The notes under the pieces are model-generated. The model was not told the DNA's origin. It searched no databases and worked only from the letters and a program-made list of their open reading frames with translations. Positions 38,346 to 63,446 of a stretch of DNA of 64,000 bases are shown one piece after another (positions within the stretch are counted from its first letter, which is position 1; the number at the start of each line of letters is the position of its first letter). The translations under genes and the position numbers were made by a program. The stretch is from Bacteroidia bacterium (GTDB lineage Bacteria; Bacteroidota; Bacteroidia; Flavobacteriales; Schleiferiaceae): the NCBI GenBank assembly GCA_030424545.1, contig JAUHWL010000012.1:20315-84314 (forward strand). The letters are read 5' to 3'.

Positions 38346-38368
38346 AGAATTTGGAGTTAAGTTCTGAT

Positions 38369-44159: not shown

Positions 44160-44314
44160 ACTCAATACCCACATTTGGCTTAAATAATTATTTGATTTGT
44201 CTTGATGTCTAGGTAGTTCATAATCCTGGAATTTTAATATAACAAAAAAAAATATGGCTTTCTATTACCTTGTGTTGTCTATTTTGAAAATCTAAAATCA
44301 ATAGACTTAAAATT

Positions 44315-45646: not shown

Positions 45647-45798
45647 ACAGATTCTGAGAAGTTTTTTGTATCAGTAGATCAATTAAATGCGCATCTATTG
45701 TCCTGAAACAGTCGAAAGTTTCCATGGGGTTTTACAGAGTAGTGAATATCTATGCCGCTCAAACCTTATAGATAAATTTTGATTAAAACCATTTTCTC

Positions 45799-46230
45799 AT
45801 GAAGAATCTAATTTTAGCCATTGTAGCTATTGTGTTTTTGCATATAAATCTAAAAGCTCAAGTACAGGATACATTTCACTTTGCTGTAGAATTAATTAAC
45901 CCTGTCGTCAGCAGCAATGGAGATACTTCATATACTTTCAAATGCGTCATTGATGCTGATGATAGTTTGCAAGTTTCAGCTGTACAATTTGATATTGGAA
46001 CATATCCCGGAGATAATAGTGTTGCCAGTCAGCTATTTGTAGTTGGTCAAAATTATGGGTTACCCAACGGATATTCCGTAACTACCGCCACAAATGAAAT
46101 AACACTAGGGCTAGGAATCTTAGATGTGGGGTTATATCACTACAAAGTTCGGTTGCAGTTTTTAAATGGTAGCAATTCTCGTGATTTAGTTTACAATGCC
46201 GCAACTGGGCAATACACATTTTTGCCATGA
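45799..46230 (+). CDS. small secreted protein
   Basis: Signal peptide MKNLILAIVAIVFLHINLKAQ. Overlaps the next gene by 4 nt, typical of an operon. Confidence 0.5.
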   Translation: MKNLILAIVAIVFLHINLKAQVQDTFHFAVELINPVVSSNGDTSYTFKCVIDADDSLQVSAVQFDIGTYPGDNSVASQLFVVGQNYGLPNGYSVTTATNEITLGLGILDVGLYHYKVRLQFLNGSNSRDLVYNAATGQYTFLP

Positions 46231-47159
46231 AAAAAGTTGTCTTTATCATAGTTTCAATTTGGGTGGTACTAAGTGTAAAAGGCCAAGTTCCCATCAATCA
46301 AAAAACTGTTACGTTATCTCCCTCAAAGGATGCAATGGTTTGGTTAAAACACGGGGATGATGTGTTTAAAAATACGAACTATGGGTTGAATGATCATTTG
46401 AGAATAATTGCAGGTACACATGGAGGGGCATTGTCATTTTATCGCACATTCATGGAGTTTGATTTGTCAAGCATTCCTCAAAATGCAGTTGTAACCGATG
46501 TGAAACTGTATTTGTACGCGCAGGGCGACCATTCTCAAACGAGTGGAAGCAATGAAAGCCGGTTATATGCGCTTAGTACAAGTTGGTCTGAAAGTACAAT
46601 AACATGGGAGAACTCGCCCAAGGAAGGTGATGCCGATGGTTCAAGTTTGCTAATTCCAGCAAGTAATACAGGAGGAGTTAATGATCCAAATAAAGATTAC
46701 ATCGTTGATGTTACCGAATTTTTCAATGAATACAGGACCAGCAACGCATTTTCATACTTCATTAAGTTAGAAACAGAGGTAAAGTATAGAAAATTGACAT
46801 TTTATTCAAAAGACTATGCCACCGTTTCTAAAAGGCCAAAATTGGAAGTTACATATACAGTTCCATTTGTAGAGCTATTGCCAGAGCTTTCAAGCGATTT
46901 TATAAAGCTTAAAGGTGATGTTCTTTATATTAAGTATGATGAAGAGGAGGTTCCATCTAGCATATTAAACTATAGAATTTTAGATTTTTTTCAGGATGAA
47001 TTATCGGGTTTGCCTACTATATCAAGTGTTTTACCAGGCCATAATCTAATAGCGATAGACTTAGCGAGTGTTAGCTTGAGTAATGGGGAATTTTACATTT
47101 TAGAGGTAACAGATTCTCATGGTGAGAAAAAATATTTACGATTTAAAAAAATCATTTAG
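46227..47159 (+). CDS. secreted protein with SW-E-TW-N-P motif (possible DNRLRE-type domain)
   Basis: Signal peptide plus LYALSTSWSESTITWENSPKEG. Family assignment is tentative. Confidence 0.45.
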   Translation: MKKVVFIIVSIWVVLSVKGQVPINQKTVTLSPSKDAMVWLKHGDDVFKNTNYGLNDHLRIIAGTHGGALSFYRTFMEFDLSSIPQNAVVTDVKLYLYAQGDHSQTSGSNESRLYALSTSWSESTITWENSPKEGDADGSSLLIPASNTGGVNDPNKDYIVDVTEFFNEYRTSNAFSYFIKLETEVKYRKLTFYSKDYATVSKRPKLEVTYTVPFVELLPELSSDFIKLKGDVLYIKYDEEEVPSSILNYRILDFFQDELSGLPTISSVLPGHNLIAIDLASVSLSNGEFYILEVTDSHGEKKYLRFKKII

Positions 47160-47163
47160 CAGT

Positions 47164-47688
47164 ATGAAAATTTCACACATAGTCTTAGGCGTATTGATTG
47201 GTGTTGCGCTCACTTTATCAGGTGTTGCTATGTATAAAGCAACAACCGTCTCAGAGGTGATGTATGTTGACGTTCCCAAACTTTTCAACTCATTTGATTT
47301 AAAGAAGGATCTTAGTGTAAAGTTAGAAGGAGTCATGACGAGGAGAAATGAAATAATAGACAGTCTTCAAACCGAGCTTAAATTGCTAGAAAACAATCTT
47401 AGACATGAACAAGGCAGTGATCAGATAATGCAGGCTTATATAAAAAAGAAAGAAGAATTGGCTGTACATCAAAACAGGTTTGCAGAGCTAAACGCACAAG
47501 ATGCGCAAAAATATGACGAGCAGATTTATACTCAAATCAACCAATATATATCAGAGTATGGAAAAGAACAGAAATGCAGATTTATCCTTGGGGCTAACGG
47601 AAATGGCTCTATGCTCTATGCCAATCAGGACAACGATATTACTGATGAAGTCATAGCCTATGCGAATTTTAAATTTAATGGAGAATGA
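47164..47688 (+). CDS. OmpH/Skp-like periplasmic chaperone
   Basis: N-terminal TM/signal (MKISHIVLGVLIGVALTLSG), then a long coiled-coil region and a C-terminal KCRFILGANGNGSMLYANQD resembling the OmpH C-terminus. Start chosen at 47164 so the gene does not overlap its upstream neighbour. Confidence 0.55.
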   Translation: MKISHIVLGVLIGVALTLSGVAMYKATTVSEVMYVDVPKLFNSFDLKKDLSVKLEGVMTRRNEIIDSLQTELKLLENNLRHEQGSDQIMQAYIKKKEELAVHQNRFAELNAQDAQKYDEQIYTQINQYISEYGKEQKCRFILGANGNGSMLYANQDNDITDEVIAYANFKFNGE

Positions 47689-48245
47689 AACGTCTATTAG
47701 TTATGTTTTTGGTTGTTCAACTTCTTGCTTGCAGTCAATCTGATAAACCTGTTAGTGATGTTGAGTATTTGGCTTGGATGGAAAATGAAGAAAATGGTTT
47801 CTTTCAACAGAAAACGATTGAAAACATAACCTTTAGCTTATTCAGGCAAACCTCTACCTATAGAACATTAAAATCAACAGATGAGCAGCTAGGAGAGCAG
47901 TTTGTTCTGCGCATAAGCCCAAAAGAGCGAAACGCTCAAAATGTATTAGAGCAACATGCCACAAGTACTGAAGAGTATTTTAGTTTACTTCAATACTTCA
48001 ATACCGCATTTAGAACTCAAATTGAACTTGTTGATTTAGAAAATAGCACAGCATTGCCCATTGCATACATGAACATTCCTAATTATAGGACTGCCAATTA
48101 TTTAGAGTTCGTTTTTGCGTTTAATCAATTGCCACTTGAAAGCGAGTTCAAAATAGTCATAAATGACAATGTATTTGATTCAGGTCCAGTAGTATTTCGT
48201 TTTAAAAACACAACCCCGCCTTACTTAATCGCCAACGCAAAATGA
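47685..48245 (+). CDS. lipoprotein
   Basis: Lipobox LLAC-S (MKRLLVMFLVVQLLACSQ). Its stop overlaps the start of the SpvB-domain gene. Confidence 0.55.
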   Translation: MKRLLVMFLVVQLLACSQSDKPVSDVEYLAWMENEENGFFQQKTIENITFSLFRQTSTYRTLKSTDEQLGEQFVLRISPKERNAQNVLEQHATSTEEYFSLLQYFNTAFRTQIELVDLENSTALPIAYMNIPNYRTANYLEFVFAFNQLPLESEFKIVINDNVFDSGPVVFRFKNTTPPYLIANAK

Positions 48246-51200
48246 ATATGATTTCAAAAATTAGAAAAGGAAAATTAATACGTCTGTTAGCCGCATTTAT
48301 TGCCATAAATATGCTAGTAGAGATAGTGAGTCCGACAACTGCATTTGCACTCACAACTGGCCCGTCTCAGCCTGAAGTACAGTCATTTGAGCCAGTGAGC
48401 ACAAGTGATATGGTTAATTTATTTTCTGGAGATTTTACTTATAATATTCCACTTTTTGAATTACCCGGTCCAGATGGAGGGTATCCATTTAATTTAGCTT
48501 ACCACTCAGGCATCGGCATGGAGCAAGAAGCATCATGGGTTGGATTGGGATGGAATATTAATCCAGGAGCACTGACCCGACAGATGCGAGGTGTACCCGA
48601 TGAGTTTAAAGGTGATGAGTACAAGTATGAGATGGATATGAAGTCATCTCAAACATTTGGAATCAATGCTTCAGCCAGTATGGAAATTTGGGGGTCAGAT
48701 TTAAGTAAGGCTACAGGAGGAGAAGGAAATGGAGCCTTATCTCTTTCAACAAGTCTTTATTATAACAACTATAGAGGATTTGGGTATTCCCTTGGTTCAG
48801 GGGTTAGTTTTAGAGCAGCGCACACTTCCATTGGATTGAATATGGATTCACAAGGAGGGACATCAGTGAGTATGGACTTCAGTGCTTCGCATGAACTGAG
48901 TTCCAAAAGTAATACGAGCATGAATGTAGGTGTTGGAATAAGTCTTAGTTCAAAAGCAGGTTTACAGGGAAGTTTGAGCTCATCATTAACAAAAAAATCC
49001 ACATTGACAGGGGAGAACGCAGCTGGAAAGAAGATTACTAATGATGTCACTAAATCATTAGGAACTAGTTCAACATTAAGCAGTGCTACGTTAGCTTATT
49101 CAAGTTATAACCCAATGGCTACAAGAGCGAATCATTTAAATGTAAGTTTCAGGACAGGGGGTGATTTGGCTGGAGCATTTACCAATTTTTCGATAGGAGG
49201 TTTTTTTAATACTACATATGCAAAAGATAAAAACTCTTCAAGAAAAGCCTACGGATTATTTTATGCACAGAAAAGAACAAAAGATGGCTTACAAGATTTT
49301 AATCGAGAGCGCGAAAAATCAGTGCACAGAGACGATAAAACATTTCCAATTCCTGTATCTACGCCAGACTTTTATTCGTTTACAGGGCAAGGAATAGGAG
49401 GAATGTTCCGCACGTTCAGGTCAGATATAGGAAATTTTCACGACCCATATACTAAATCAACTACAGATGGCGGGAGTTTTGGTTTTGAAGTAGGCCCAGG
49501 ACAACCTAACCATATTGGAGTTACGGGCACATATACTCATGGGCAAAGTGAAGTAGGAAAATGGAATGTAAATGGTGGCGCATATGATTTCAACAATTAT
49601 GGAGAAGAAAGAAATGATAAAGAGATTTCTTGGTTTGCTTTGAATGGAGAGATGGTTGCCATGGAGAAAGATGAATTAGATTGGATTGGTGGAGAAAAAG
49701 CTGTGACAGCAAAAATGCAGAAAAAAGGCTCAACTGAATATGTACCTGTTGCGAACACATTTATTGATAAATCGAAAAATCAAATTACGCTATCCAATCA
49801 AAACAGGCAAGAAGCAGGCTTCAACAAAAGGAAACGCAGAGGAACATTGATTCAACAAGTAACCAATGGATTGTTGCTTGATGGAAACAATGAATTAATG
49901 TCAGAGTACAAAGTGGGCTATTATAGTAGCTCAGTTGATGTTTCAGATGCGTTAGATGTCTTGGCCGCTACAGAAACATCTTATTTAAGAGGGACTAAAA
50001 AGTCGCATCACTTTGCGGGTTTTTCAGTTCACCAACCCAATGGCCAGCGCTACGTTTATGGCATTCCCGCTTATAATAATAAACAAATAGAAAGTTCATT
50101 TAGTGTTCCAGATGAGGATGTTGATTGTATACCAAGAGTAGATGTGCCTATAGATGGTAGTTCTTTGAAATATAAACATAACCTGACCAATGAGTTTTTG
50201 ATGCGCACGGAAATTCCGGAATATGCACATTCATACTTGCTAACAGGTATTTTAGGAAATGACTATATCGATGTGTTAGACGATGGGATAACTGATGATG
50301 ATTATGGTTATTGGGTAAAATTCAACTACGCAAAAATTCATGACAATTTTAACTGGCGTATGCCCTTTAAAGGTGCTCGATACAATAAAGGGAGCTACTC
50401 CCTAAAAGAAGACAATAAAGGAAGTTTTATTTATGGAGAAAAAGAGATCTGGTACTTAACTTCAGTAGAGACCAGAACGCACGTTGCCGTTTTCGAATTA
50501 AACGATCGCATGGATGGCATAGAGGCCCCAGGGGAACTAGCGGGATTAAGTGCTTCTTTATCTGGGTTGAGCAAGCTAAAAAAAATAAAGAGCATAAAGC
50601 TATACTCCAAGTTAGCATATCAAAATGCTGTTTCTCAAAGTACGCTATCATCGCTAAACCCTATTCAAACCATTCATTTTGAGTATGATTATTCGTTATG
50701 TGAAGGAGTAGAGAATAATAATGGTCAAACCGACCCAAATGATGGAGACCCTATTAGCAATGATGGAGGAAAACTAACACTTAAAAAGGTGTACATGACC
50801 TATGAAGGAAATCAACGCGGAGCGCTCAGTCCATATGAATTCAACTATAGCAATGTAAATCCAGACTATGATGAGTTTGCCATGGATAGGTGGGGAAACT
50901 ATAAACAAAGCAACAATGAGGGAGATTATTGTTCAAATATTGACATGCCTTATGTCAGCCAGTATGATGTGAGTACAGGATATACAAAAACAGAGTTGGA
51001 AAACTTTAGAGAAAATGAAGTAGATGACTATGCCAATGCATGGCATTTAAATGAAATCATAACCCCCACAGGAGGTAAAATATCAATCGAATATGAGAGT
51101 GATGATTACAGCTACGTTCAGCACCGCAAGGCAACACAGATGTTTCAAATAAACGGTTTAAAAAAGGACGCCAATGATGGTTTAACTACTTATACATACG

Positions 51201-54200
51201 AATCAAACCAAATAAACAACCGTGTAGAATTTAATTTAGAAGTTCCTATAGCAGCCGATATATCATATTATGCAGATAAATACCAAGGTATTTCTGACCC
51301 AGATGACGTATTAGAACAACACTATTTAAAAGGGTTGGAAAGACGTGGAGAACACATAGTATATTTTAAAACCTACGCTAATTTAAGAGATAATTTGTGG
51401 GATTATGTAAATGGATATGCAAAAGTAGTTGACTGGGGAGTAACGGGAGAAACAGCTGTAAAAAATATAAATGGCAGTAACCTGACCGCTTATACAAAAG
51501 GGTATTTAGTATTGGAAGATGTTGAGGGTTATAACCCGTTTGCTGCGGCAGTTTTCCAGCATATGCGCACAAATGAACCCATATTGCTCAATTATAATAC
51601 AGCAATTAACGGAGAGCCAGGTACTTCGGATTTTGAAAAGGCAGCTCGAGTAAAAAGCTTGCTTAGTTTCATCACTGAAATTCCGAAAATGTTTACCAAG
51701 TTTCGTAATTTCTGTAGAATGAAAGGATTTGGAAACAAGATTGACCCCGCAAAAACGGTCATCAAACTCACAAGTCCAGATGGCGTGAAATATGGTGGCG
51801 GCACTCGCGTAAAAGCGATAAGAATGAGTGACGAGTTTCCAGTAAATGGATCTTCAGCAGAATATGGACAAGTGTATTCTTACACGATGAATGATCCAAA
51901 GAATCCAGGCTTAACCATTAGTTCTGGAGTAGCTAGTTATGAGCCACAAATAGGAGGAGATGAAAATGCATTACGCTATGCTGAGAGTTTTTATACAGAA
52001 GGAACAGGTAAAAATACTTCAAACCAGCGATATGTAGAAATGCCAATCAATGAATCCTATTTTCCAGGTGCTTCAGTAGGCTATGAACAAGTAGAAGTGA
52101 TGAGTTTGAACACAGCTAATGTAGTTGATGGCCAAACTACGAATGTGGGAGATCCAACAGGAGTAAGTGTTCACAAATTTTATACAGCGCGTGAGTTTCC
52201 GACAATGGTGGAAAAAACAAATCGAACCGAAAACACTGGCAAAGCAAGAAGATTATGGATTCCAATTCCATTTATTGGGCAAATAGAAACCAATAGGATG
52301 CACGCTTCTCAAGGATATGCCGTACAAACCAATGATATGCATGGCAAACAAAAAAGCATTAGCAACTACGGGATAAGTAAGGCGGGTAACATAGTGTGGG
52401 AAGCTGCAATAAGTAAAGTAGAATATGACTATAAAAAGAAACTTATACTCTATGATGAAACAGCGGTATATAAACTTGAGAATAAGGTAAATACTATCCG
52501 CATTGTTGGTGCGGGAGATCATTATTTTGATCACGTACAAGATGAAATGTTGCTAGGTGTTCAATACGAATTCTTTTCGGATCAGCGTTGGTCTAAGTCA
52601 TATTCAAATATGGGAGGATTAGAGTTTAATACAGAGATTTTAACTGTTTATCCCATTCCAATTCCTTGGCCAAGCGTAAATTCCAGTACCAATGAACTCG
52701 GGCTTTGGATTACCAATAAAGTTATTCATCGCTCGGGGATTCAGCACAAAACAGTGGCCACTGATGGTCAAAGTACGGTAACAACAGAAAACCTAGCCTT
52801 TGACGCTTATACAGGTAAACCACTCTATACACGAACTAAAAACAATTGGGATAATAATGTGTACGGGTTGCAAGATGTTTATAATTACCCAGCAGTGTCA
52901 AATTTAGGATATCAATTTATTAGTGGGTTGCAAACGGTAGTGGGGCCAGGAAGTAATGACGTAAGTGTTGACCTCATGCAAATCACAGAAACGGGAAAAG
53001 AGCTTTATCCCGGAGATGAACTGATCTTGATCGATGAAAGTGGGAATAGATATAAAGCCACAGTTGTGCATGATTTAAGTATGCAATATGCAACTCAACA
53101 TGCAGATGAGGGGTCTTATTTAGAAGTAGGAAGTAGATTAATCTATGGGGAAAATTTACCTGTAAGTCCATCAGGAGAATACAATATAACCGTTGTACGG
53201 TCAGGTCACAGAAATATATTAAACCTACCTGCTCATGGTCTTACAGCATTGTCAGATCCTTTAAATTCGGATAACAGGATAGTAGGGAATTTAGATGATG
53301 AGTTTACAGGAATAAGAAATGTGCTCAATGCTAGTGCGGTTAATTACACCGATAAATGGAGCAAATTAAATGAAGACAATAATCCATATAAAAATGGCTT
53401 GAGAGGCATATTGCGGAAACAAAATGATCTTTTTTATGCAGCAAATCGCAAGCAAAGTTCTGGCTTGGTTTTAGGGCAAGATGGGATATATCAAGACGAT
53501 CAAGGAGGAGTTAACTATTATTATCCTGCCATATTACCATGGAACTTTTATGATGGTGACCCTATGGTGCTAGGTATGGATTATGCCACATCTACCAATA
53601 AAGACAGTAAAGATACATGGTATTATGGTTCTACTACCACACAGTTTGATGCCTACGGAAATGAAATTGAAAGTACTGATCCTTTAGGAATATTTAGTAG
53701 TGCGAAATATGGTTATAAAGGTTCATTGCCCATTTGGGTAGCGGCTAACGCATACCAAAAAGAAGTGCTTTTTGATGGTTTTGAGACCATTGATGAAACG
53801 GGCTTACAGGCAGACAACGGTGAATCATATAACCCGCTTGACGAGACTTTTATCGTAGATGAAGAAGCACATACTGGAAAAAGGAGTTTGCGTGTTCAGT
53901 CACCAACTTTGGATGTGCGATCAGATTTAGAGTTAGAAGGTGAAAAAGAATATGTTATTAGCGCTTGGGTGAAAGCAGATGAAACTGATTTTACTTATAA
54001 CCATGAAGGTGGTGACAACATTTCTATAGAAGTCCGCTTTTACGATCAAAACAGAACGACCATACTAGGTTCGGTTGTGGCTATCCCTGTTGGTGAAGTG
54101 ATTGAAGGTTGGCAACAAGTTGCTTTACAATTTGAGACCCCAAATGATCCAGCATTTGCAAAGACCGATTTCTATTTCTATACGGGTAACCAATATGCAC

Positions 54201-54424
54201 ATATGTGGGTAGACGATTTGCGCATTTTTCCTGCGAACGGAAACATGCAAAGTTATGTCTATGATGCAAACAATTACAGATTACAAGCCACATTGGATCA
54301 AAACAACTTTGCATCATTTTATTACTACGATGAGGCGGGTAACCTCTATTTAGTGAAAAAAGAAACCGAGCGAGGCATCTTCACTATTTCAGAAAGCACA
54401 AGCCATAAACAAGAAACGAATTAA
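48242..54424 (+). CDS. Giant SpvB/TcaC-N-terminal-domain protein (Tc toxin TcB-like)
   Basis: Residues ~60-125 (FSGDFTYNIPLFELPGPDGGYPFNLAYHSGIGMEQEASWVGLGWNINPGALTRQMRGVPDEF) match the SpvB N-terminal domain signature LPxGxxGxxPxLxLxYxSGxGNGxxGxGWxL...I.R.T..G.P. An S/T/G-rich low-complexity region follows, then a long beta-rich body. Confidence 0.75.
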   Translation: MNMISKIRKGKLIRLLAAFIAINMLVEIVSPTTAFALTTGPSQPEVQSFEPVSTSDMVNLFSGDFTYNIPLFELPGPDGGYPFNLAYHSGIGMEQEASWVGLGWNINPGALTRQMRGVPDEFKGDEYKYEMDMKSSQTFGINASASMEIWGSDLSKATGGEGNGALSLSTSLYYNNYRGFGYSLGSGVSFRAAHTSIGLNMDSQGGTSVSMDFSASHELSSKSNTSMNVGVGISLSSKAGLQGSLSSSLTKKSTLTGENAAGKKITNDVTKSLGTSSTLSSATLAYSSYNPMATRANHLNVSFRTGGDLAGAFTNFSIGGFFNTTYAKDKNSSRKAYGLFYAQKRTKDGLQDFNREREKSVHRDDKTFPIPVSTPDFYSFTGQGIGGMFRTFRSDIGNFHDPYTKSTTDGGSFGFEVGPGQPNHIGVTGTYTHGQSEVGKWNVNGGAYDFNNYGEERNDKEISWFALNGEMVAMEKDELDWIGGEKAVTAKMQKKGSTEYVPVANTFIDKSKNQITLSNQNRQEAGFNKRKRRGTLIQQVTNGLLLDGNNELMSEYKVGYYSSSVDVSDALDVLAATETSYLRGTKKSHHFAGFSVHQPNGQRYVYGIPAYNNKQIESSFSVPDEDVDCIPRVDVPIDGSSLKYKHNLTNEFLMRTEIPEYAHSYLLTGILGNDYIDVLDDGITDDDYGYWVKFNYAKIHDNFNWRMPFKGARYNKGSYSLKEDNKGSFIYGEKEIWYLTSVETRTHVAVFELNDRMDGIEAPGELAGLSASLSGLSKLKKIKSIKLYSKLAYQNAVSQSTLSSLNPIQTIHFEYDYSLCEGVENNNGQTDPNDGDPISNDGGKLTLKKVYMTYEGNQRGALSPYEFNYSNVNPDYDEFAMDRWGNYKQSNNEGDYCSNIDMPYVSQYDVSTGYTKTELENFRENEVDDYANAWHLNEIITPTGGKISIEYESDDYSYVQHRKATQMFQINGLKKDANDGLTTYTYESNQINNRVEFNLEVPIAADISYYADKYQGISDPDDVLEQHYLKGLERRGEHIVYFKTYANLRDNLWDYVNGYAKVVDWGVTGETAVKNINGSNLTAYTKGYLVLEDVEGYNPFAAAVFQHMRTNEPILLNYNTAINGEPGTSDFEKAARVKSLLSFITEIPKMFTKFRNFCRMKGFGNKIDPAKTVIKLTSPDGVKYGGGTRVKAIRMSDEFPVNGSSAEYGQVYSYTMNDPKNPGLTISSGVASYEPQIGGDENALRYAESFYTEGTGKNTSNQRYVEMPINESYFPGASVGYEQVEVMSLNTANVVDGQTTNVGDPTGVSVHKFYTAREFPTMVEKTNRTENTGKARRLWIPIPFIGQIETNRMHASQGYAVQTNDMHGKQKSISNYGISKAGNIVWEAAISKVEYDYKKKLILYDETAVYKLENKVNTIRIVGAGDHYFDHVQDEMLLGVQYEFFSDQRWSKSYSNMGGLEFNTEILTVYPIPIPWPSVNSSTNELGLWITNKVIHRSGIQHKTVATDGQSTVTTENLAFDAYTGKPLYTRTKNNWDNNVYGLQDVYNYPAVSNLGYQFISGLQTVVGPGSNDVSVDLMQITETGKELYPGDELILIDESGNRYKATVVHDLSMQYATQHADEGSYLEVGSRLIYGENLPVSPSGEYNITVVRSGHRNILNLPAHGLTALSDPLNSDNRIVGNLDDEFTGIRNVLNASAVNYTDKWSKLNEDNNPYKNGLRGILRKQNDLFYAANRKQSSGLVLGQDGIYQDDQGGVNYYYPAILPWNFYDGDPMVLGMDYATSTNKDSKDTWYYGSTTTQFDAYGNEIESTDPLGIFSSAKYGYKGSLPIWVAANAYQKEVLFDGFETIDETGLQADNGESYNPLDETFIVDEEAHTGKRSLRVQSPTLDVRSDLELEGEKEYVISAWVKADETDFTYNHEGGDNISIEVRFYDQNRTTILGSVVAIPVGEVIEGWQQVALQFETPNDPAFAKTDFYFYTGNQYAHMWVDDLRIFPANGNMQSYVYDANNYRLQATLDQNNFASFYYYDEAGNLYLVKKETERGIFTISESTSHKQETN

Positions 54425-54425
54425 T

Positions 54426-55124
54426 ATGAAAAGGCTACAATCACATATGTTGGCGCTGCTATGGGCAATAATTAGTCTGTTATATGTTCCAGAGGCTGAT
54501 GCGCAAGACTTTAAAGCTGATATGCAATATTTAACTGAGCATGTTATGGCAAATAAGAGTGTTAACATCAAAGCAAGCATAGAGATATTTGATGCCAACG
54601 ATAGGCCAATTCAACAGCAAACATATAGCCTGCTAAAAAGAGATCAAGAATTCAAATTTACCACCAACTCTATGGCAATGCTCTATAACAAAGATGTAAT
54701 GCTCAGCATAAATCATGTAGATAAGAAGATATTTATTTCTCAGAGAAGTGCGGAAAAAGAACAAAAACAGCATATCCCAGAATGGGATATGGGGATTGAT
54801 AGTTTGGTGCACACCCCTTTTCCGAGTGTAGTTTATCATCACACAAGTATTGGGCATACCTATGTTTTAACGCCTTCAGCCGAAACAGGCATAAAAGAAA
54901 TTGTTATCGTGTTAAGTAATAACAAACGGAGTATCCATTCTGTAGAATATTTCTTCAAACCAGATGGAGTCTATGAGTATAGCAAGATTGTTATTGAATA
55001 TGAAAAATTTGATACACGCCCCATAGCGGCAAAAGAATTTTCCATCGCCAATTATGTGCTTCAGAAAAAGGGAAAGCAAGTTCCGGCAAGTGCTTATGGA
55101 GACTATGAAATCACCCTGTTTTAA
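54426..55124 (+). CDS. secreted hypothetical protein between the TcB-like and RHS genes
   Basis: Signal peptide MKRLQSHMLALLWAIISLLYVPEADAQ. Begins 1 nt after the upstream stop. Confidence 0.5.
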   Translation: MKRLQSHMLALLWAIISLLYVPEADAQDFKADMQYLTEHVMANKSVNIKASIEIFDANDRPIQQQTYSLLKRDQEFKFTTNSMAMLYNKDVMLSINHVDKKIFISQRSAEKEQKQHIPEWDMGIDSLVHTPFPSVVYHHTSIGHTYVLTPSAETGIKEIVIVLSNNKRSIHSVEYFFKPDGVYEYSKIVIEYEKFDTRPIAAKEFSIANYVLQKKGKQVPASAYGDYEITLF

Positions 55125-55143
55125 TCGCCAAACCATTTGATTT

Positions 55144-58100
55144 ATGCAATTTTTAAAAAACCTTCTTAGCGCTGCCTTTTTACTTTTTAGCAGCACCGTA
55201 CTTGCTCAACAAACCACTTTGTTGCAAACTGATAAAGCGGATTTGAGCATAAATAAAGTGATTCGGTTGAAGGATGCTGTTGAAGATCCATCCTCAGGAG
55301 GATATATTTTACGCAAACATAAAGTGCGCTTAGAGTATACCAGAAGCAATCGTACCGATGTGTATAGCGGGAGTGATTGGACATATCAAATAGACTATAA
55401 AATATATAATTACGGTTCTGGTGTTTCAGGGTCTACATATTCTTTAAAAGTAGCCTTTAAGCCATCAGAAGAAAATTTTATCTACGAGGCCATACGTGTA
55501 CACGATCAGCTTGCCACAGAAGATTTAGGCGTTAAAATAGTGGGGATATCAACTACAGGCACTGTGCCAGATGACATTGTACTTTCAGTAGAAACAGAAA
55601 CAGAAGTACATTATTTTTTATCTCCTGCTGCACAAGGGTATGTGCATTTCAACAACACCGCAAAAGAAGTGCGCTGGAAAACAGTCGAAGGAGCGAAGCA
55701 ATACGATGTAGAATGGGTGTTTGTAGATGACGAATCCGCAGCGGCATATACAGCGTTTATTGGAGCAACTGGAAATGCCAAACCATTTGCTTTTAAAGAG
55801 CCAGTGAGAGTGCGTACCGCAGGCAATAGTTTAAGATTAGAGCCTACATATCCTTCAGGCACACTTTACTTTCGTGTGCGTCCCGTAGGAGTGTGGGTAG
55901 TGGGGGTTAATGGGAATTATAGCCACATAAAAACGGGGGCTTGGGGATATACCAAAAGTCCAACTGATGGTACGGTTGCTAAACACATCATCAGCACCTC
56001 CTTTGAAGAAGACAAAAACTGGCAAATGGTGGTTACCTATGCCGAAGAAGGTAAAAACAAGCGAGTTGTTAGCTACTATGACGGGAGTTTGCGCAACCGC
56101 CAAAGCCTGACCAACCTTTCTACACAAGATGTTACATTGGCGGCAGAACAAGTGTATGATTTTGAAGGGCGCCCAGCAGTTAGCATTTTACCAGCACCAC
56201 TTAGCAATAACACATTTGGTTATAAAAGCAATTTAAACAAAAAGGGTAGCAATGCCTTTTCTGCTAGTGATTTTGATGGTAAAAATGGAAGTGCATTGAA
56301 TACCAGTGCAACAGGAAGTGCTGCACAATATTATTCAAACAACAACCTTTACAAAAACCAGCAAACCAATGGCAATTTCATTCCAGATGCTGAAGGTTAT
56401 GTGTATGCACAAAATGTATACATGCGCGATAATACAGGACGAATGGCTATTTCAGGAGGAGTTGGGAGTACCTTTAAAATTGGAGGCGATCATGAAACGA
56501 AATATTACTACGGAACCCCCTCAGCAGTAGAGCTCTATCGCTTATTTGGAACAAATGTTGGGGAAGCTAGTCATTATAAAAAAAACATGGTGATGGATCC
56601 GAATGGTCAACTTAGCGTGAGCTACCTTGATCAAGAAGGGCGCACCATTGCAACGGCATTGGCAGGGCTTAGCCCAGATAATTTGTATGCTTTGGAAAGC
56701 AATGTATCAGACGAAAGCATTCAAATAGATTTATTGGCAGGCAACAATGGTTGGGATTTGGCCAATGGAGTAGCCACAAGTGTGCATCGTCAACTAAACG
56801 TACTCCCAAATAATGAGTTTACTTTTGAGTACGACATAACAGGAGCGCTTTATGAAGTAAGTGTTACAGGGCTTGATCCTAACGAACCGCAAAACTCTAC
56901 GGACTTTTGCATGGATTGCGAATACGCATTAACAATTTCCATCACCGATCCGGATGGCAACAATGTGCCGATGGAAGTGACAAGCGGCCCAAGTGACAAA
57001 CTTGGAACCCATAATGTGCCATACCAGGACACAATTCGCATGACGGGAGATCCGGATTGCTCTAGCTCATCAACCTATAACCCTGAAATGGCTCCCGTTT
57101 ATTTTACGGCAGATTTTGAGGACATAGGTACATATACCATTACCCGACAGCTAAAAGTTATTATAAATGAAGCAGATTTTATGAGCCAAGCAGCGGATGC
57201 GTTAGAAGATTTAGGGCTTAGTGAGCAAGGCTTAATTGATCAATATCTGCAAAACGTAGATACGGTAGATTGCGATTTTACGTGCTACGACCGCGCCAAG
57301 ACGAAGGCAAAATTGATGTATCCGGGCTATAACAGCACACAAATTGAAAACGTGATTCCAGCAATAATGGACACCATGTGTGTGCGCTTGATGAATCAGG
57401 CAATGGGGGGAGGCGAAGCAGAGTGCGAAAGCCTTTTGGGTGCAATGATTACAGACGTTTCACCAGGTGGGTGGATGTACACTAGCGATGCCACCAGTGA
57501 TTTTTGGACTTCTATTGACGTGTCATCAATCAACACCTTATTAGGCACCAGTTTTACATTGGCCGATTTGCGCGACCCTACACAATGGTATAGTGAAATC
57601 AGTGATGAATTGGTAAAAAAACACCGAGAGTATTGCCACTACCTGCAATGCTCTACTTATGCTGAGTCTAAAGGTTATCAAAACAACATGGCCATGGGGG
57701 CAAATGATTGGGCAGAAGCTAAAACTCAGGGCTTTGATGACCCATTTAATGAAAAAGGAACTAGCAATGTTATCGATAAAGACCCTATTTCAGATGTTGA
57801 TTTGGGACAATCATTTTCTTTAACAGCAAATGATGGTGTCAGTTCTTCATTTTCGGCTACAGATCATCACTCTGATGCCATTGAATTTTTAATGATGCAC
57901 GGCTATCCTGGCATGTCTGGAAAAGCAAGCTTTTCCCTCGGTTTAGACCAATTGCAAGGCACTACTGTGAGTGGTATGGTCTATCCGTCTGATGATCAGG
58001 GAAAATGGTCGCTTTTCATGTCTGCCTACAACGCGGCATGGTATCAGGTGTACGAAGCGGTAAAAGCGGCAAGCAGCTGCGTATATTATCATGATGGCAA

Positions 58101-61100
58101 TCAGATTTTTAACGAACACCCAAATTTATCTGACCCTAGTGTTCAAAGTGGTATATATGCAGGTAGTGCCAATTTCTGGAATAGTACGAGTTTAGAGTGT
58201 GAAGACATTTGTGCCCAAAACGCCAGTGCTTGGCTAGATCAACTCAATACAGAAACTTCGGGGGATTTGTTTGCAGGGTTATTAACCTGCGATAGCGCCC
58301 AGGTTTACACTTTATTGTACAACTATTGTATTGGCGATTGTGGTACCAACAACCCGTTTGGTATGCTGCGTACAGGCACCACGGCATATAGTAATTTGGT
58401 AACTTCTTTGAGCAACTGCAGCTTGACTCTAGACAGCCTCACTACTGTGGCTAGTTATATAGATAGTTGTGAAAATGAAATTACCACGCATTATCGGGTT
58501 TCAGATTGTATGGAGAATATTTTTAAGGGATTAAACAGTGTATTGCCAATACCTACCTCAAACTTCGTTCAAGCCCCACCAACATCTCATGCAATGTGGG
58601 CTTGTATCAATTCATATTATCAATATAAACCTAGCGTAAGAGTTCAACAAACGCACAACTATGAACAATTTGGACTAGGAGATAGTACGGTGAGTAATTG
58701 TGTTTTGTTTAGTCTGTGGACAGATGCAGGAAGTAATGTTGATCTAAACAATGTGGCTCAAATTTTATCTTCCAAAGTAAATTTAACTGGTTCTACATCT
58801 GCTCCATCTTCCCCTGGCTGGACTATAACATATTCGGGCATATCCGTAAAAGTGAGGTATATCAATAATTCTATTGAGGAGGTATTTCTGTATACAGGAA
58901 GCGAATGGGCTGTTTGTACTTCAATTTTGGCTTATGAATCTTATGAAGTGCCCTGTCAGCCTTACATAGACTCTGCCTTTGCTGCCAATTTAGATACCAA
59001 TCGTTTCAACTTTCAAACCGCCCGAGAAGATTGTATAGAGCTGATAAAAGCCCGTGCCGAGCAAAATGCAAAAGACGCCTGGCAAGATTTATTGCAAAAT
59101 GCCGCCAGCCAACTTTTGGCGGAGTACAACGAAAACTGCTTGCAAAATTCAGCAGAATCATTCATTGCCAATTATGATTTGCGCGAGTACCACTACACGC
59201 TTTATTATTATGACCAGGCAGGAAACCTGGTGCAAACCGTGCCGCCAGAAGGTGTAGATATTTTGTCTAGTGCAGCTTTTCCTAATGGCATCTACAACCA
59301 AAGTAGCATGCCCGCACACAGGCTAAAAACACAATACCAATACAATAGCTTAAACCAGTTGGTGTGGCAAAGCACACCAGATGGTGGCGAGACCGACTTT
59401 TGGTACAACAACATCGGCCAATTGCGCTTTTCACAAAATGCAAAGCAAGCACCCGGCAACTACTTTAGCTACACAAAATATGATGCACTGGGGCGCATCA
59501 TAGAGGTAGGTGAACATGATAAAGACTTACTAAATACATTGACCTTTACCGTGAATGCCCATACTCCAGATTGGCCGGCTACCAAAGGGTGGGAAGTAAC
59601 ACAAACCCATTATGACCAGGTAGCCTCAGCCGCAGTGCAAGCTCAGTTTAATCAGCCACAGAGCCATTTGCGCAACCGCGTAGCCACTACAGAATATATT
59701 GAAAACACAAAAGACGTACTCAGCCAAAACAACAAAATTACAGCTGCCACGCATTACAGCTATGATGTGCACGGCAACGTAAAGGAGTTGGTGCAACAGC
59801 AAAACTATTGGGTAGCCACGCCAAACCGCTACAAGCAAATGGCGTATGATTATGATTTGGTAAGTGGCAATGTAAAAGAAGTAGCCTACCAAAAAGGGCA
59901 TTATGACCAGTTTTACCACCGCTATCGTTATGATGCAGACAACCGCATTACCCGTATGCTAACCAGCCGCGATGGTGAACGTTGGGAAACCGATGCCCGT
60001 TATGAATACTACTTGCATGGCCCACTGGCACGAACTGTGATTGGCGAAGACAATGTGCAAGGCGTTGATTATGCCTACACCCTGCAAGGGTGGCTCAAAG
60101 CCGTAAATGGCATTACCGTAAACGCATCAGAAGATATGGGGAAAGACGGCAACAGCACCGCCCATCGCTGGAATGCCGAAGATGCCTTTGGGTTTAATCT
60201 TGGCTACTACCAAAGCAATAACCAGGCAGACTACCTAGCCATTGGCAGCACAAGCGATCATATTGTAGCCATTACCGCAGGTAACCTTACACAAAGTAAC
60301 GGCACCAAGCACCGCCTATACAATGGCAACATAGGCTTTATGGCCACAAGGTTGCCGATGAGCTACGGCACCCATGTGCGCATGGGCATGTACCAATATG
60401 ACCAGCTAAACCGCCTAAAAGAGAGTAAAAGCGACTATGTATATGATGGATTTTACCTAACCACCGCAGGCAATCATTTTAAAACATTGTATGATTACGA
60501 TGCCAATGGAAACATTGAAAACCTGAAACGCTTTGACGGTGGTGGAAGCCAATCTGACGATATTAATTATACCTACAACAAAACTTCCGGAGAGCTAGAC
60601 AACAACAAGCTTGCTAGCGTATCAGACAGTTATAATGGCCCGGGCGATGACATACACGGCACCCATAGCTACACGTATGACAATATTGGCAACCTAATAG
60701 CCGATAGTGGCGAAGACATTGGCAGTATAGATTGGACCGTTTATGGCAAAATAAAAAGCGTAAACCGCAATGGGGGCAACCTGCCCAACTTAGCCTTTGG
60801 CTATGGCCCCGATGGCAACCGAATGTATAAAATAACAAAAGGCAACGGCACCACCCCCGGCAACGTACACACTTGGGAAGGCCAATGGTACGTGCGCGAT
60901 GCCAGCGGCAACGTAATGGCCATCTACAACGAAGCCTTTTCCAACATAGGCGAAGACGCCTATAAAAGCACACTCACCCTGAGCGAGCTACCCCTCTACG
61001 GCAGCAGCCGTGTAGGGTTGCAAGAGGGGCAAACTACCGATACTGAAAACGCATATTTTTCAGGCACCAGCACCGCCACAGGTTTTACACCTGGCACCGC

Positions 61101-62598
61101 TTATGTGCTGCATGACGTTTTTACAACAGGCGATGATTATGATGTAACCAACGAAAATGGGGGCGATGTAACCCTTGGTGGAGGCAGTGACCATACCCTA
61201 ACGGTAGGCGCAACCTACGAGAAAATTTACTTTACTACCTCGGGCGAAATAGAAGTGCCGGGCGATATGTTCGAAACAGATGAAACGGGCAACTACATCC
61301 CACAGGGTGGAGAAATCACCATCACCCTTTACACCGGAGGCGAGTTTGAGTTGTTAGACCCTATCTTTTTTGAAATAAAAAAAGTATTTAGTGGATTAAC
61401 CTTGCTAGGCAAAGGCGTACAAGTAACTCGCGGTGTGAATGAGGAAGAAATATTTAGTGAGCGAGAGTTACTAAACAAAAAATATGAACTCTCAAACCAT
61501 TTAGGGAATGTTTTAACGGTTGTGTCAGATTTAAAACTTGGTCAAGACAATAATAGTGACGATATTGCGGAGGCATATTTGGCAGACGTTCTTACATATG
61601 CTGACTATTATCCATTTGGGATGACCATGCCGGGGCGGTTTGCGAATCCGGGAAGTTACAGGTATGGCGGTGCAGGTGGCCAAGAATCAGATGTGGAAAT
61701 TTCAGGAAGTTTTGGAAATCATTACACGGCTGAATATTGGGAGTTGGATGCTCGAGTTGGGCGCAGATGGAACAGAGACCCAGTAGTGAAATCATGGCAA
61801 AGTCCTTATGCTGTATTTGATAATAATCCAATTTATTACAATGATCCATCTGGTGCAGAAAGTACCCCCTGTGATGATTGCGCAGAACATGTTTTATTGG
61901 ACGAGGTAGTAGTTACAGGAGAAGCTTCGAATAAAGTAGGGAAAGTGTTTAAGGAAATCGGAAGCTTTTTTGATAAAATAGGAGAAAGCTTAAAAGAGGC
62001 AGGGACTCAAGTAGCTATATTTACGGCTGGAGTTGTAAATGCATGGGGCACTAATCAAGTTATGGGCGTAGGTCGTAGAAACCCACAAGAGTTTGGACCC
62101 TATTCGTCAACTGCGCAAGCTGGACAAACTACTGGTGATGTTATATCTATTTTTACTGGTGCCGTAGAGGTATTTGCAGGTGGGGGTACTGAAGTTGTTT
62201 CCCTAGGCACTACGAGTGCGGTTTCTATTCCTCTTGCACTGCATGGTGTATCAGTTATGGGTACAGCAACGGCAAACATGATTAAGGATGGAGTAGAGCG
62301 TACTCATGATAATATAAATGGCAATCCTTCTTCTAATGGAAGTAGTGGTGGTGGAAGTAAAAAGCCAACTCCAGATACTAATCCAAGTGATTTTAAAAAG
62401 CTTCCAGGAAACCAAGGTTATGTGCATAAGAAAACGGGTGAAATTTACAAGAAAAGTCATACAAGTCATGGTAATAAGGGCAATACAGGAAAGCAATGGA
62501 AAGTATGGCCAAAGGGAACCAAAGATTTTGGAAAAAACTCCAAAAAATCTGGAAAGAGAACAACTGTTGATGGTGATGGAAATATAATAGGTAATTAA
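55144..62598 (+). CDS. RHS/YD-repeat protein with RHS core and C-terminal polymorphic toxin domain (TcC-like)
   Basis: Signal peptide. Many YD repeats (YTLYYYDQAGNLVQT, YQYNSLNQLVWQSTPDGGETDFWYNNIGQLRF, YDYDANGNIENL, YTYDNIGNLIADSG, YGPDGNRMYK). RHS core end motif PIYYNDPSGAE (PxxxxDPxG), followed by a ~245-aa non-repeat tail. Confidence 0.85.
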   Translation: MQFLKNLLSAAFLLFSSTVLAQQTTLLQTDKADLSINKVIRLKDAVEDPSSGGYILRKHKVRLEYTRSNRTDVYSGSDWTYQIDYKIYNYGSGVSGSTYSLKVAFKPSEENFIYEAIRVHDQLATEDLGVKIVGISTTGTVPDDIVLSVETETEVHYFLSPAAQGYVHFNNTAKEVRWKTVEGAKQYDVEWVFVDDESAAAYTAFIGATGNAKPFAFKEPVRVRTAGNSLRLEPTYPSGTLYFRVRPVGVWVVGVNGNYSHIKTGAWGYTKSPTDGTVAKHIISTSFEEDKNWQMVVTYAEEGKNKRVVSYYDGSLRNRQSLTNLSTQDVTLAAEQVYDFEGRPAVSILPAPLSNNTFGYKSNLNKKGSNAFSASDFDGKNGSALNTSATGSAAQYYSNNNLYKNQQTNGNFIPDAEGYVYAQNVYMRDNTGRMAISGGVGSTFKIGGDHETKYYYGTPSAVELYRLFGTNVGEASHYKKNMVMDPNGQLSVSYLDQEGRTIATALAGLSPDNLYALESNVSDESIQIDLLAGNNGWDLANGVATSVHRQLNVLPNNEFTFEYDITGALYEVSVTGLDPNEPQNSTDFCMDCEYALTISITDPDGNNVPMEVTSGPSDKLGTHNVPYQDTIRMTGDPDCSSSSTYNPEMAPVYFTADFEDIGTYTITRQLKVIINEADFMSQAADALEDLGLSEQGLIDQYLQNVDTVDCDFTCYDRAKTKAKLMYPGYNSTQIENVIPAIMDTMCVRLMNQAMGGGEAECESLLGAMITDVSPGGWMYTSDATSDFWTSIDVSSINTLLGTSFTLADLRDPTQWYSEISDELVKKHREYCHYLQCSTYAESKGYQNNMAMGANDWAEAKTQGFDDPFNEKGTSNVIDKDPISDVDLGQSFSLTANDGVSSSFSATDHHSDAIEFLMMHGYPGMSGKASFSLGLDQLQGTTVSGMVYPSDDQGKWSLFMSAYNAAWYQVYEAVKAASSCVYYHDGNQIFNEHPNLSDPSVQSGIYAGSANFWNSTSLECEDICAQNASAWLDQLNTETSGDLFAGLLTCDSAQVYTLLYNYCIGDCGTNNPFGMLRTGTTAYSNLVTSLSNCSLTLDSLTTVASYIDSCENEITTHYRVSDCMENIFKGLNSVLPIPTSNFVQAPPTSHAMWACINSYYQYKPSVRVQQTHNYEQFGLGDSTVSNCVLFSLWTDAGSNVDLNNVAQILSSKVNLTGSTSAPSSPGWTITYSGISVKVRYINNSIEEVFLYTGSEWAVCTSILAYESYEVPCQPYIDSAFAANLDTNRFNFQTAREDCIELIKARAEQNAKDAWQDLLQNAASQLLAEYNENCLQNSAESFIANYDLREYHYTLYYYDQAGNLVQTVPPEGVDILSSAAFPNGIYNQSSMPAHRLKTQYQYNSLNQLVWQSTPDGGETDFWYNNIGQLRFSQNAKQAPGNYFSYTKYDALGRIIEVGEHDKDLLNTLTFTVNAHTPDWPATKGWEVTQTHYDQVASAAVQAQFNQPQSHLRNRVATTEYIENTKDVLSQNNKITAATHYSYDVHGNVKELVQQQNYWVATPNRYKQMAYDYDLVSGNVKEVAYQKGHYDQFYHRYRYDADNRITRMLTSRDGERWETDARYEYYLHGPLARTVIGEDNVQGVDYAYTLQGWLKAVNGITVNASEDMGKDGNSTAHRWNAEDAFGFNLGYYQSNNQADYLAIGSTSDHIVAITAGNLTQSNGTKHRLYNGNIGFMATRLPMSYGTHVRMGMYQYDQLNRLKESKSDYVYDGFYLTTAGNHFKTLYDYDANGNIENLKRFDGGGSQSDDINYTYNKTSGELDNNKLASVSDSYNGPGDDIHGTHSYTYDNIGNLIADSGEDIGSIDWTVYGKIKSVNRNGGNLPNLAFGYGPDGNRMYKITKGNGTTPGNVHTWEGQWYVRDASGNVMAIYNEAFSNIGEDAYKSTLTLSELPLYGSSRVGLQEGQTTDTENAYFSGTSTATGFTPGTAYVLHDVFTTGDDYDVTNENGGDVTLGGGSDHTLTVGATYEKIYFTTSGEIEVPGDMFETDETGNYIPQGGEITITLYTGGEFELLDPIFFEIKKVFSGLTLLGKGVQVTRGVNEEEIFSERELLNKKYELSNHLGNVLTVVSDLKLGQDNNSDDIAEAYLADVLTYADYYPFGMTMPGRFANPGSYRYGGAGGQESDVEISGSFGNHYTAEYWELDARVGRRWNRDPVVKSWQSPYAVFDNNPIYYNDPSGAESTPCDDCAEHVLLDEVVVTGEASNKVGKVFKEIGSFFDKIGESLKEAGTQVAIFTAGVVNAWGTNQVMGVGRRNPQEFGPYSSTAQAGQTTGDVISIFTGAVEVFAGGGTEVVSLGTTSAVSIPLALHGVSVMGTATANMIKDGVERTHDNINGNPSSNGSSGGGSKKPTPDTNPSDFKKLPGNQGYVHKKTGEIYKKSHTSHGNKGNTGKQWKVWPKGTKDFGKNSKKSGKRTTVDGDGNIIGN

Positions 62599-62601
62599 AT
62601 A

Positions 62602-62937
62602 ATGAAATTTGAAAAAATATATAGGGAATCTATTTCGTTTTGGCCAAATAGTATTGATTTATCAGACGGTAAGTTGATTGAGGAAACAAATGGATTTTAT
62701 TCAGAAAACTTATCTTCTGCATGGGATAAAGCAGAAGAATTGGCTTCTAACGAATGGCAATCCTTAATGGTTTGGACTTTTTATCAGGAGCTACACAAAA
62801 AGGCAGTTGAGAGCTTTAAGGCAAATAGATTTTATTTAAATATTGATTCTATTGATATGGCAATGCTTAAACAGTCTTACTTAAATGCTTTAAAAGAAGA
62901 GGGGTATGAAAAAATGCTAAATCAATTGGAAGTATGA
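62602..62937 (+). CDS. candidate cognate immunity protein
   Basis: 111-aa cytoplasmic ORF 4 nt downstream of the RHS stop, the canonical rhs immunity position. Confidence 0.5.
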   Translation: MKFEKIYRESISFWPNSIDLSDGKLIEETNGFYSENLSSAWDKAEELASNEWQSLMVWTFYQELHKKAVESFKANRFYLNIDSIDMAMLKQSYLNALKEEGYEKMLNQLEV

Positions 62938-63446
62938 AGTCGTTGTTATTCATATCCGTTTTGTCCCTATTATTAACCACCTCATGGGTAAAGTTTACAC
63001 CGGAGAGTGGTGATTATACATTAGAATTAAATGATAAGGCGAAATATCAGCAACGAGTTATTGAAGGAGGGTATGCAGATATATACACAATAGTGGAAAA
63101 TATTACATCCCAAGAAAATGAGTATTATATCATATCAGTTTCAAAGTTGAATGAAGAAGAGGAGTTTACTCTTGAAAAAATAGCGTCAAAAGTCTTTAAA
63201 GACAACTATCTATTGACCTGTGGTTGTGAAGTGGTTAATGAAAAAGAAGTACAGTATCAAAATTTTAAGGCGATTGAATATGATCTTAGAATTACAAAAA
63301 ATGACGGTTTTTTAGTTGGAAAATCAGTTCATATCCCTAAAGGAAGGATATTGTACAGTGTCAGTTTTATTACATCGGAAAAATTCTTGAATAGATTTAA
63401 ATCAGAATATCAACGAACCATAAATTCAGTACAGCTTTTAAAATAA
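62934..63446 (+). CDS. small secreted protein (second immunity candidate or accessory)
   Basis: Signal peptide MKSLLFISVLSLLLTTSW. Overlaps the previous gene by 4 nt. Confidence 0.45.
   Translation: MKSLLFISVLSLLLTTSWVKFTPESGDYTLELNDKAKYQQRVIEGGYADIYTIVENITSQENEYYIISVSKLNEEEEFTLEKIASKVFKDNYLLTCGCEVVNEKEVQYQNFKAIEYDLRITKNDGFLVGKSVHIPKGRILYSVSFITSEKFLNRFKSEYQRTINSVQLLK

Follow-up and report, generated by a model that had tools for sequence, protein, structure and literature searches.

A Bacteroidota gene cassette that joins a secreted RHS polymorphic toxin candidate to a giant partner protein and putative periplasmic chaperones

A 64,000-nucleotide (nt) stretch of DNA from a Bacteroidia bacterium of the Schleiferiaceae (hereafter the window; assembly GCA_030424545.1, contig JAUHWL010000012.1, positions 20,315 to 84,314) carries on its + strand a run of nine packed open reading frames (ORFs), at 45799-63446, which overlap their neighbours by 4 nt or lie 1-19 nt apart. 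Two of the products are secreted giants, an RHS-like protein of 2060 amino acids (aa) and a DUF6443-RHS protein of 2484 aa, which are called G1 and G2 below. We propose, with a probability of roughly 55%, that this cassette is a Bacteroidota-specific, Sec-dependent, envelope-assembled RHS polymorphic-toxin system with a dedicated partner protein and chaperones, and not a Tc (ABC) toxin. An earlier note on the same DNA had described the region 47164-62598 as a Tc-like BC module, with G1 as the TcB and G2 as the TcC homologue. The ORFs and sizes that it gave for an OmpH-like protein, a lipoprotein, G1, a 232-aa protein and G2, tightly packed on the + strand, are correct. The boundaries of the operon are wider than it had them, with two more genes upstream, from 45799, and two ORFs and an rhs fragment downstream. 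Its remark that the architecture is poorly described agrees with the literature, in which no description of this cassette was found.

G2 (55144..62598, + strand) reads as a genuine RHS-shell toxin. It starts with a Sec-type signal sequence (...STVLA|QQ), and it matches Pfam RHS_repeat with 25.7 bits against a cutoff of 22 and, in a scan of its first 700 aa, DUF6443 (PF20041) at aa 298-374 with 28.5 bits against 27.8; PF20041 is present on most homologues of the G2 N-terminus. A profile of 20 G2 homologues has the mosquito protein SGS1 as its best match in the PDB (E 2.6e-25), and it also reaches the TcC proteins YenC2 (E 3e-17) and RHS2 (E 7e-10), the T6SS (type VI secretion system) toxins RhsA (E 4e-17), RhsP and Tse5, and teneurin-like proteins, all within profile positions ~1318-2165. 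The shell terminates in NNPIYYNDPSG, which has the form P-x4-DPxG, and this Rhs core ending (P-IYYN-DPSG, aa 2229-2237, 61828..61854, + strand) is the expected autoproteolysis boundary. Residues G2237, D2212 and P2213 are invariant across the 20 homologues, and the family consensus NxPIxxIDLDGLE is the canonical Rhs core. The core model TIGR03696 gives a weak match (E 0.096, 13.2 bits vs 32.5), and the RefSeq name of the Aureibacter homologue is 'RHS repeat-associated core domain-containing protein'. The RHS repeats, the PxxxxDPxG ending and the TcC-like shell that had been claimed for G2 are thus all borne out.

The N-terminal ~1300 aa of G2 contain YD-like motifs and, within aa 589-1332, at least 11 Cys conserved among the 20 homologues, as fits an extracytoplasmic protein. 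Profile searches and hhalign yielded no detectable PDB relative of this region and no similarity to SpvB, to a propeller or to SepB, the TcB protein of pADAP, the hhalign comparison of G2 with SepB giving nothing significant. Together with this N-terminal module, the ~900-aa RHS region is long enough to build a cocoon without G1, and a 'BC pair' is therefore not required to enclose the toxin.

Beyond the core, G2 ends in a variable C-terminal tail of 244 aa (61864..62595, + strand) made of a Gly-rich hydrophobic module and an 80-aa Lys-rich end domain. A search of 1.84 billion representatives found 162 relatives of the tail, and each of its two modules also stands by itself at the C-terminus of other RHS/DUF6443 proteins; one relative (P0223) has an HNH nuclease behind the Gly-rich, glycine-zipper-like module. 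A direct repeat of 203 nt with 88% identity (61318-61520 and 63588-63790) reveals an orphan rhs C-terminal fragment downstream (63588..64000, + strand), a copy of G2 aa ~2069-2205 that runs out of the window. Translation of the ORF from 63621 gives nearly the same sequence as the end of the G2 shell, and the fragment presumably carries a different toxin end with its own immunity gene. The toxin end is polymorphic: tail modules common to different carriers, a swap to an HNH nuclease and an orphan rhs module are all present. The tail would fit a layout in which a pre-toxin or entry module is joined to a swappable toxin. Only 3 nt past the toxin gene lies an ORF of 111 aa with no signal sequence (62602..62937, + strand), whose position makes it a likely candidate for the immunity protein. 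It has no family match in Pfam or NCBIfam, and no homologue in the related loci, the latter being as expected for a polymorphic toxin-immunity pair.

The cassette is conserved far beyond the window. Homologues of G1 number more than 3841 at 90% clustering, every named one being 'hypothetical', and neither Pfam nor NCBIfam holds a model for the family. A scan with one genome per species found relatives of the cassette in at least 577 Bacteroidota species genomes, from Flavobacteriales, Cytophagales, Chitinophagales and Saprospiraceae to metagenome-assembled genomes of Bacteroidales, with the recurring order CBM96/DNRLRE, OmpH, lipoprotein, G1, LolA3-like, G2. The synteny that the earlier note had suggested surveying, OmpH-lipoprotein-G1-RHS, thus recurs phylum-wide and is specific to Bacteroidota. 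Genes were counted over 80 loci from all major Bacteroidota orders, the denominators being the loci with enough flank: G2 lies downstream of G1 in 63/64 loci and a CBM96/DNRLRE gene upstream of it in 64/68, while the LolA3-like gene and the lipoprotein gene are each present in 61/68 and the OmpH gene in 41/68. The link is reciprocal, in that loci reached from homologues of the G2 N-terminus also carry G1 upstream. Cultured carriers include Chitinophaga japonensis, Fulvivirga sp. M361, Chryseolinea lacunae, Dawidia cretensis and Aureibacter tunicatorum, where the cassette is on plasmid pAT2. In 27 of the 80 loci (L010-L020 and others), G1 is split into proteins of ~1600 aa and 800-1300 aa, with the break falling close to aa 1680 in the window protein, and in L088 and L089 the DUF6443 module and the RHS shell of G2 are encoded separately; these splits suggest four structural modules. 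A phmmer search with SepA, the TcA protein of pADAP, was empty in the window, as had been claimed for the 64 kb, and in 86 related loci together with as much as 10 kb of their flanks. SepB and SepC as queries found nothing in any related locus.

G1 (48242..54424, + strand) also has a Sec-type signal sequence (...SPTTAFA|LT), with the cleavage site AxA|LTSGPSQPE kept in 32 homologues, and the signal peptides attributed to both giants are therefore confirmed. The most conserved stretch of the family, a dense run of invariant columns, is an SpvB/TcB-type, DUF6531-like N-terminal motif at aa 56-125 (48407..48616, + strand). Between aa 64-124 of G1 and aa 36-98 of SepB, identity is 47% over 55 columns, and hhalign rates the similarity as weak (E 0.029, probability 1.7%); the DUF6531 match, at E 7.9e-4, is below the cutoff in a Pfam search at E<=10. 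In Hymenobacter, RHS proteins begin with this module by itself. The 'SpvB N-terminal signature' read from the sequence is real as a short motif, but models of the full SpvB domain find no match. Neither SpvB (PF03534) nor TcdB_mid matches G1 or three of its homologues in Pfam at E<=10, which is the search by hidden Markov models (HMMs) that had been named as speaking against a TcB homologue if it came back empty. No NCBIfam model matches G1 or its homologues, and neither phmmer nor a 32-sequence G1 profile found a TcB, SpvB or Rhs chain among the PDB sequences. The assignment of G1 to TcB by sequence was rejected after Pfam, NCBIfam, phmmer, profile and BLASTP searches and an hhalign comparison with SepB had all failed beyond the N-terminal motif. 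Nor are the two giants detectable paralogues, hhalign of the G1 and G2 profiles giving nothing significant. Because there is no SpvB or TcB-mid HMM match, we place G1 outside the TcB family, with which its sequence appears to have in common only the N-terminal motif of ~60 aa.

These results bear on the Tc interpretation, in which G1 is a divergent TcB and G2 a TcC, and the two close up into a single cocoon, to be passed on to an outer-membrane delivery device other than TcA. Consistent with it, besides the N-terminal motif, are the obligate adjacency of G1 and G2 in the order B then C and the terminal YD hairpins of G1, which could continue into another RHS sheet. It is made improbable by the empty SpvB and TcdB_mid searches, by the capacity of G2 for a self-contained cocoon, and by the position of the LolA3-like gene between the two giants. 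In addition, signal peptides are not known as a feature of Tc subunits.

AlphaFold models built with 36-40 homologues cover aa 1-1200 of G1 (mean predicted local distance difference test, pLDDT, 74) and aa 861-2060 (pLDDT 78). In these models we read the order signal peptide, SpvB/DUF6531-type module, barrel-like hairpins, partial RHS-like sheet with other β domains, CBM-type domain and terminal YD hairpins. The barrel-like domain is predicted at aa ~123-440 (48608..49561, + strand) from Ser/Gly/Thr-rich amphipathic β hairpins, and it is a possible outer-membrane anchor or translocator. The hydrophobic face of strands 136-236 is kept across 32 homologues, unlike that of most later RHS-like strands. 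The CBM4/16/22-type β sandwich at aa ~1869-1990 (53846..54211, + strand), which precedes the terminal YD hairpins, is carbohydrate-binding-like. Fold comparison of G1 returned paired values of 11.2 and 230 for the SpvB N-domain, 11.0 and 323 for TcdB2-TccC3, 9.5-10.8 and 219-241 for T6SS Rhs cores, and 7.3-9.0 and 124-159 for 12-14-strand outer-membrane barrels (KdgM, CymA, OmpG, Omp33, autotransporter β domains). The top Foldseek matches of the N-terminal half are secretins and membrane barrels, not RHS proteins. No β propeller appears in either structure-match list for G1, and the six-bladed gate (TcdB_toxin_midN/midC) with which TcB docks on TcA was not found. Judging from the models, G1 resembles an RHS-type sheet in general rather than TcB in particular, and its barrel-like domain may insert into a membrane.

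The predicted fold also informs an interpretation in which G2 alone is the equivalent of a fused TcB-TcC (1300-aa module, RHS shell and toxin, ~2420 aa) and G1 is A-like, with its CBM domain binding a receptor and its hairpins being membrane-active or pore-forming. The size of G2 does equal that of TcB plus TcC, the gene order, G1 before G2, parallels A before BC, and the splits of G1 in 27/80 loci and of G2 in L088 and L089 recall that of TcA in some Tc loci. The CBM-type domain of G1, and its long amphipathic hairpins, which Foldseek matched to secretins and toxin pores, would suit the A role. On the other hand, G1 is predicted to be almost all-β, with no TcA-like helical shell or channel, the SepA search was empty, and the N-terminal module of G2 has no SpvB, propeller or SepB similarity. 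We regard this interpretation as improbable too, and slightly less likely than the preceding one.

The remaining conserved genes code for putative envelope proteins. The 174-aa product of 47164..47688 (+ strand, counted from the Met at 47164) matches Pfam OmpH (PF03938) with 68.5 bits against 32.4 (E 8.8e-19) and Skp PRK10780 weakly, and its assignment as an OmpH/Skp-like periplasmic chaperone is solid by sequence. It is followed by a lipoprotein of 186 aa (47685..48245, + strand) with the lipobox LLAC, whose Cys16 is kept in at least 90% of 23 homologues, from a family with no annotation; it has no Pfam, NCBIfam or PDB match. The Skp/OmpH-like chaperone and the lipoprotein had both been recognized in the earlier note, which missed the LolA3-like nature of the 232-aa protein and the orphan toxin module. 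This 232-aa protein (54426..55124, + strand), which has a signal sequence, aligns over its full length with NCBIfam LolA3_fam (NF053579; E 2.7e-21, aa 9-229 on model positions 2-231 of 232) at 76.2 bits, under the cutoff of 83. All of its 23 cassette homologues match the same model over their full length, with a best E of 4.6e-33. It has no sequence-level PDB match, and it would belong to, or adjoin, the LolA3 family as a putative periplasmic carrier protein. The lipoprotein was also considered as a LolB-like partner of the LolA3-like protein, an idea that was abandoned after hhalign of the two alignments gave a probability of 5% and Pfam and PDB searches were empty.

Upstream of the OmpH-like gene, a secreted protein of 310 aa (46227..47159, + strand) matches Pfam CBM96 (E 7.6e-20) and NCBIfam DNRLRE_dom (E 7.8e-27). 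The corresponding gene ranges from ~150 aa to >1500 aa between species (L003, L023, L024, L045, L059, L083 and others), a size range that suggests a surface or secreted component of modular build. Seven of the nine cassette products carry signal sequences, which, with the lipobox and the Cys-rich N-terminal region of G2, point to extracytoplasmic locations for the products of the cassette.

In the mechanism that we propose, G2 would be exported to the periplasm and build an RHS cocoon around its own C-terminal tail, and the tail, with its Gly-rich hydrophobic module and small variable toxin domain, would presumably be cleaved after the P-x4-DPxG core. Immunity would come from the product of the 111-aa gene downstream of G2, and the orphan rhs fragment would be a store of spare toxin ends for recombination. 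G1, a secreted and mostly β protein, would be the obligate partner; its barrel-like hairpin domain may anchor in the outer membrane, or pass G1 through it, in the manner of an inverse autotransporter, and its C-terminal CBM-type domain could bind surface glycans of the target. In the periplasm, such very large or hydrophobic clients would be held in an export-competent state by the Skp-like and LolA3-like proteins. Additional components of the envelope or surface would be the lipoprotein and the CBM96/DNRLRE protein. With this mechanism we infer a membrane location for G1, a physical complex of G1 and G2, clients for the chaperones, passage of G2 across the outer membrane and an antibacterial use.

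Several points weigh against this proposal. OmpH is absent from ~40% of the loci, and the model confidence of the barrel-like G1 domain is medium (pLDDT 55-75). The hydrophobic face of the G1 hairpins could equally pack on protein. A barrel of 12-16 strands cannot pass a folded RHS cocoon, a difficulty for the proposed passage of G2 across the outer membrane. The G2 tail has no Pfam match and no recognizable catalytic family, its 80-aa Lys-rich end is also without family, and both its predicted toxicity and its immunity pairing with the 111-aa protein are proposals made from sequence. Finally, the system could be aimed at eukaryotes and not at bacteria.

A bolder form of the proposal, which we hold as tentative at best, has the cassette as an undescribed phylum-wide envelope machine, with G1 as its outer-membrane translocator and receptor-binding subunit and the orphan LolA3 family and an Skp paralogue as its dedicated periplasmic chaperones. 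If true, it would provide a new Sec-dependent pathway for toxin delivery in Bacteroidota and a function for LolA3. RHS toxins travel by T6SS, in Tc complexes or as wall-anchored proteins, and we found no explanation in the literature of how the many DUF6443-RHS proteins with signal peptides leave Bacteroidota cells. Across hundreds of species, cultured ones among them, the cassette ties such a toxin to conserved envelope genes, which makes the proposal testable, and it brings to light in G1 a giant family with no annotation. Should delivery be contact-dependent, it would represent a major overlooked weapon of soil, marine and wastewater Bacteroidota. The main value of the cassette lies in a testable candidate delivery pathway and in the genomic context that it gives to LolA3, a recently crystallized protein with neither phenotype nor partner. 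In F. johnsoniae, lolA3 (Fjoh_0605) lies between large genes, and Fjoh_0601-0606 around it are reported to be in a T9SS (type IX secretion system)-dependent secretome. LolA3 (Fjoh_0605 of F. johnsoniae, PGN0947 of P. gingivalis) has a solved structure and no assigned role (PMC11885536, PMC13103446). Its deletion left gliding and T9SS unaffected, and it bound LolB weakly (PMC11885536, PMC13103446). An RHS context of LolA3 is mentioned in neither report (PMC11885536, PMC13103446).

The other genes of the string are less widespread or have no family. Its first gene, which overlaps the next by 4 nt, codes for a 143-aa protein with an N-terminal signal sequence (45799..46230, + strand) that has homologues in just 9 of the related loci and matches neither Pfam nor NCBIfam models. 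At the other end, an ORF of 170 aa with a hydrophobic N-terminus (62934..63446, + strand), which overlaps the 111-aa ORF by 4 nt, is without family match in Pfam and NCBIfam. A tyrosine integrase (42924-44159) and a 443-aa ORF without annotation (44315-45646) immediately precede the cassette, in a region (42000-46000) of low GC, 0.31-0.33 vs ~0.38-0.40. Taken together, the integrase, the low-GC stretch and the occurrence of the cassette on Cytophagales plasmids suggest that it is mobile. There is no tRNA gene within the 64-kb window, and hence no tRNA insertion site for an island, and no flanking repeat was found around the cassette. GC rises to 0.43-0.46 along G2 (56000-62000) vs 0.37-0.38 in G1 and 0.36 after G2, which could stem from the amino-acid composition of RHS repeats or from a toxin gene with an evolutionary past of its own.

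The rest of the window is an ordinary Bacteroidota chromosome, with NusA, IF-2, a MoxR/Bat operon, NadA/NadB, LpxD and a T9SS-tailed protein, and its large ORFs outside the cassette are housekeeping or adhesin-like. Two large ORFs on the - strand (36018-41986) converge on the island, one of 1205 aa (Big_9, cadherin-like) and one of 775 aa with no Pfam match. A 912-aa protein (26416-29154) has DUF7619, PKD and T9SS C-terminal sorting domains, showing that the genome uses type IX secretion. In this setting, the giants might be surface adhesins or envelope structural YD proteins with an incidental toxin-like end, or cargo of a T9SS or T6SSiii encoded elsewhere, with the accessory genes only as folding aids. 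The CBM-type and CBM96 domains fit such roles, as do the T9SS cargo and the cadherin-like giant of the window and the reported place of Fjoh_0601-0606 in a T9SS-dependent secretome. However, Pfam found no Por_Secre_tail, PAAR or VgrG on G1 or G2, and there were no T6SS genes among the window ORFs scanned. The Rhs core ending, the polymorphic modular tail, the adjacent small ORF and the orphan rhs fragment are hallmarks of a toxin locus, and the pairing of G1 with G2 is near-obligate. Of the alternatives considered here, this one appears to us the least probable.

The proposed toxin system can be compared with several known ones. Like the Tc toxins (TcdB2, YenB, SepB; TccC3, YenC2, SepC), the cassette has in G2 an RHS shell with a core ending and a variable C-terminal toxin, as in TcC, and in G1 the SpvB/TcB N-terminal motif with pieces of the fold, the two genes being adjacent in one operon. 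In contrast to them, it has no TcA; G1 has neither SpvB/TcdB_mid matches nor a β-propeller gate, and adds predicted barrel-like and CBM domains; both giants have signal peptides; G2 starts with a 1300-aa Cys-rich DUF6443 module; and Skp-like, LolA3-like and lipoprotein genes accompany them. Release of Tc toxins by lysis has been described (PMC10847048). The 'TcdB/TcaC export' class of Zhang et al. 2012, which includes Bacteroidetes proteins, has SpvB and propeller N-termini fused to RHS toxins, and the SpvB-type module is seen there as a trafficking determinant in some Bacteroidetes toxins (PMC3482391). The toxin of the cassette does not itself carry the SpvB-like module, which is instead on a separate partner, and an integrin-like propeller is absent. 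The terms OmpH, Skp and LolA are absent from that paper (PMC3482391).

With the Rhs toxins of proteobacterial T6SS (RhsA, Tse5, RhsP, Tre23), the cassette has in common the RHS cocoon, the core motif, the swappable toxin end, an immunity gene (here a candidate) and orphan modules; unlike them, it has a Sec signal peptide in place of PAAR, VgrG or a clade domain. Among extracytoplasmic YD proteins, the teneurins and teneurin-like/SGS1 proteins resemble G2 in combining a YD shell with extra N-terminal modules. G2 differs in being bacterial and in having an Rhs core and a polymorphic toxin end, and an NHL propeller and FN-plug were not detected by sequence. The inverse autotransporters (type Ve) recall G1 in their signal peptide, N-proximal barrel (predicted in G1), very large β-rich C-terminal region and Skp-type help, and two-partner secretion/contact-dependent inhibition systems (type Vb) deliver polymorphic toxins with an immunity gene, as is proposed here. 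Unlike in type V systems, Pfam scans of G1 and G2 showed no match to intimin, TpsB, POTRA or TPS-domain HMMs, and the toxin of the cassette is on a second protein, RHS-encapsulated and not filamentous. By its domain content, the cassette would belong neither to the TcB proteins nor to the T6SS Rhs effectors or the T9SS cargo. It resembles the insect Tc toxins only distantly, would work partly like a Tc BC cocoon because its toxin is RHS-encapsulated, and may be partly like the type V systems, given its predicted barrel-bearing giant and its Skp-type chaperone.

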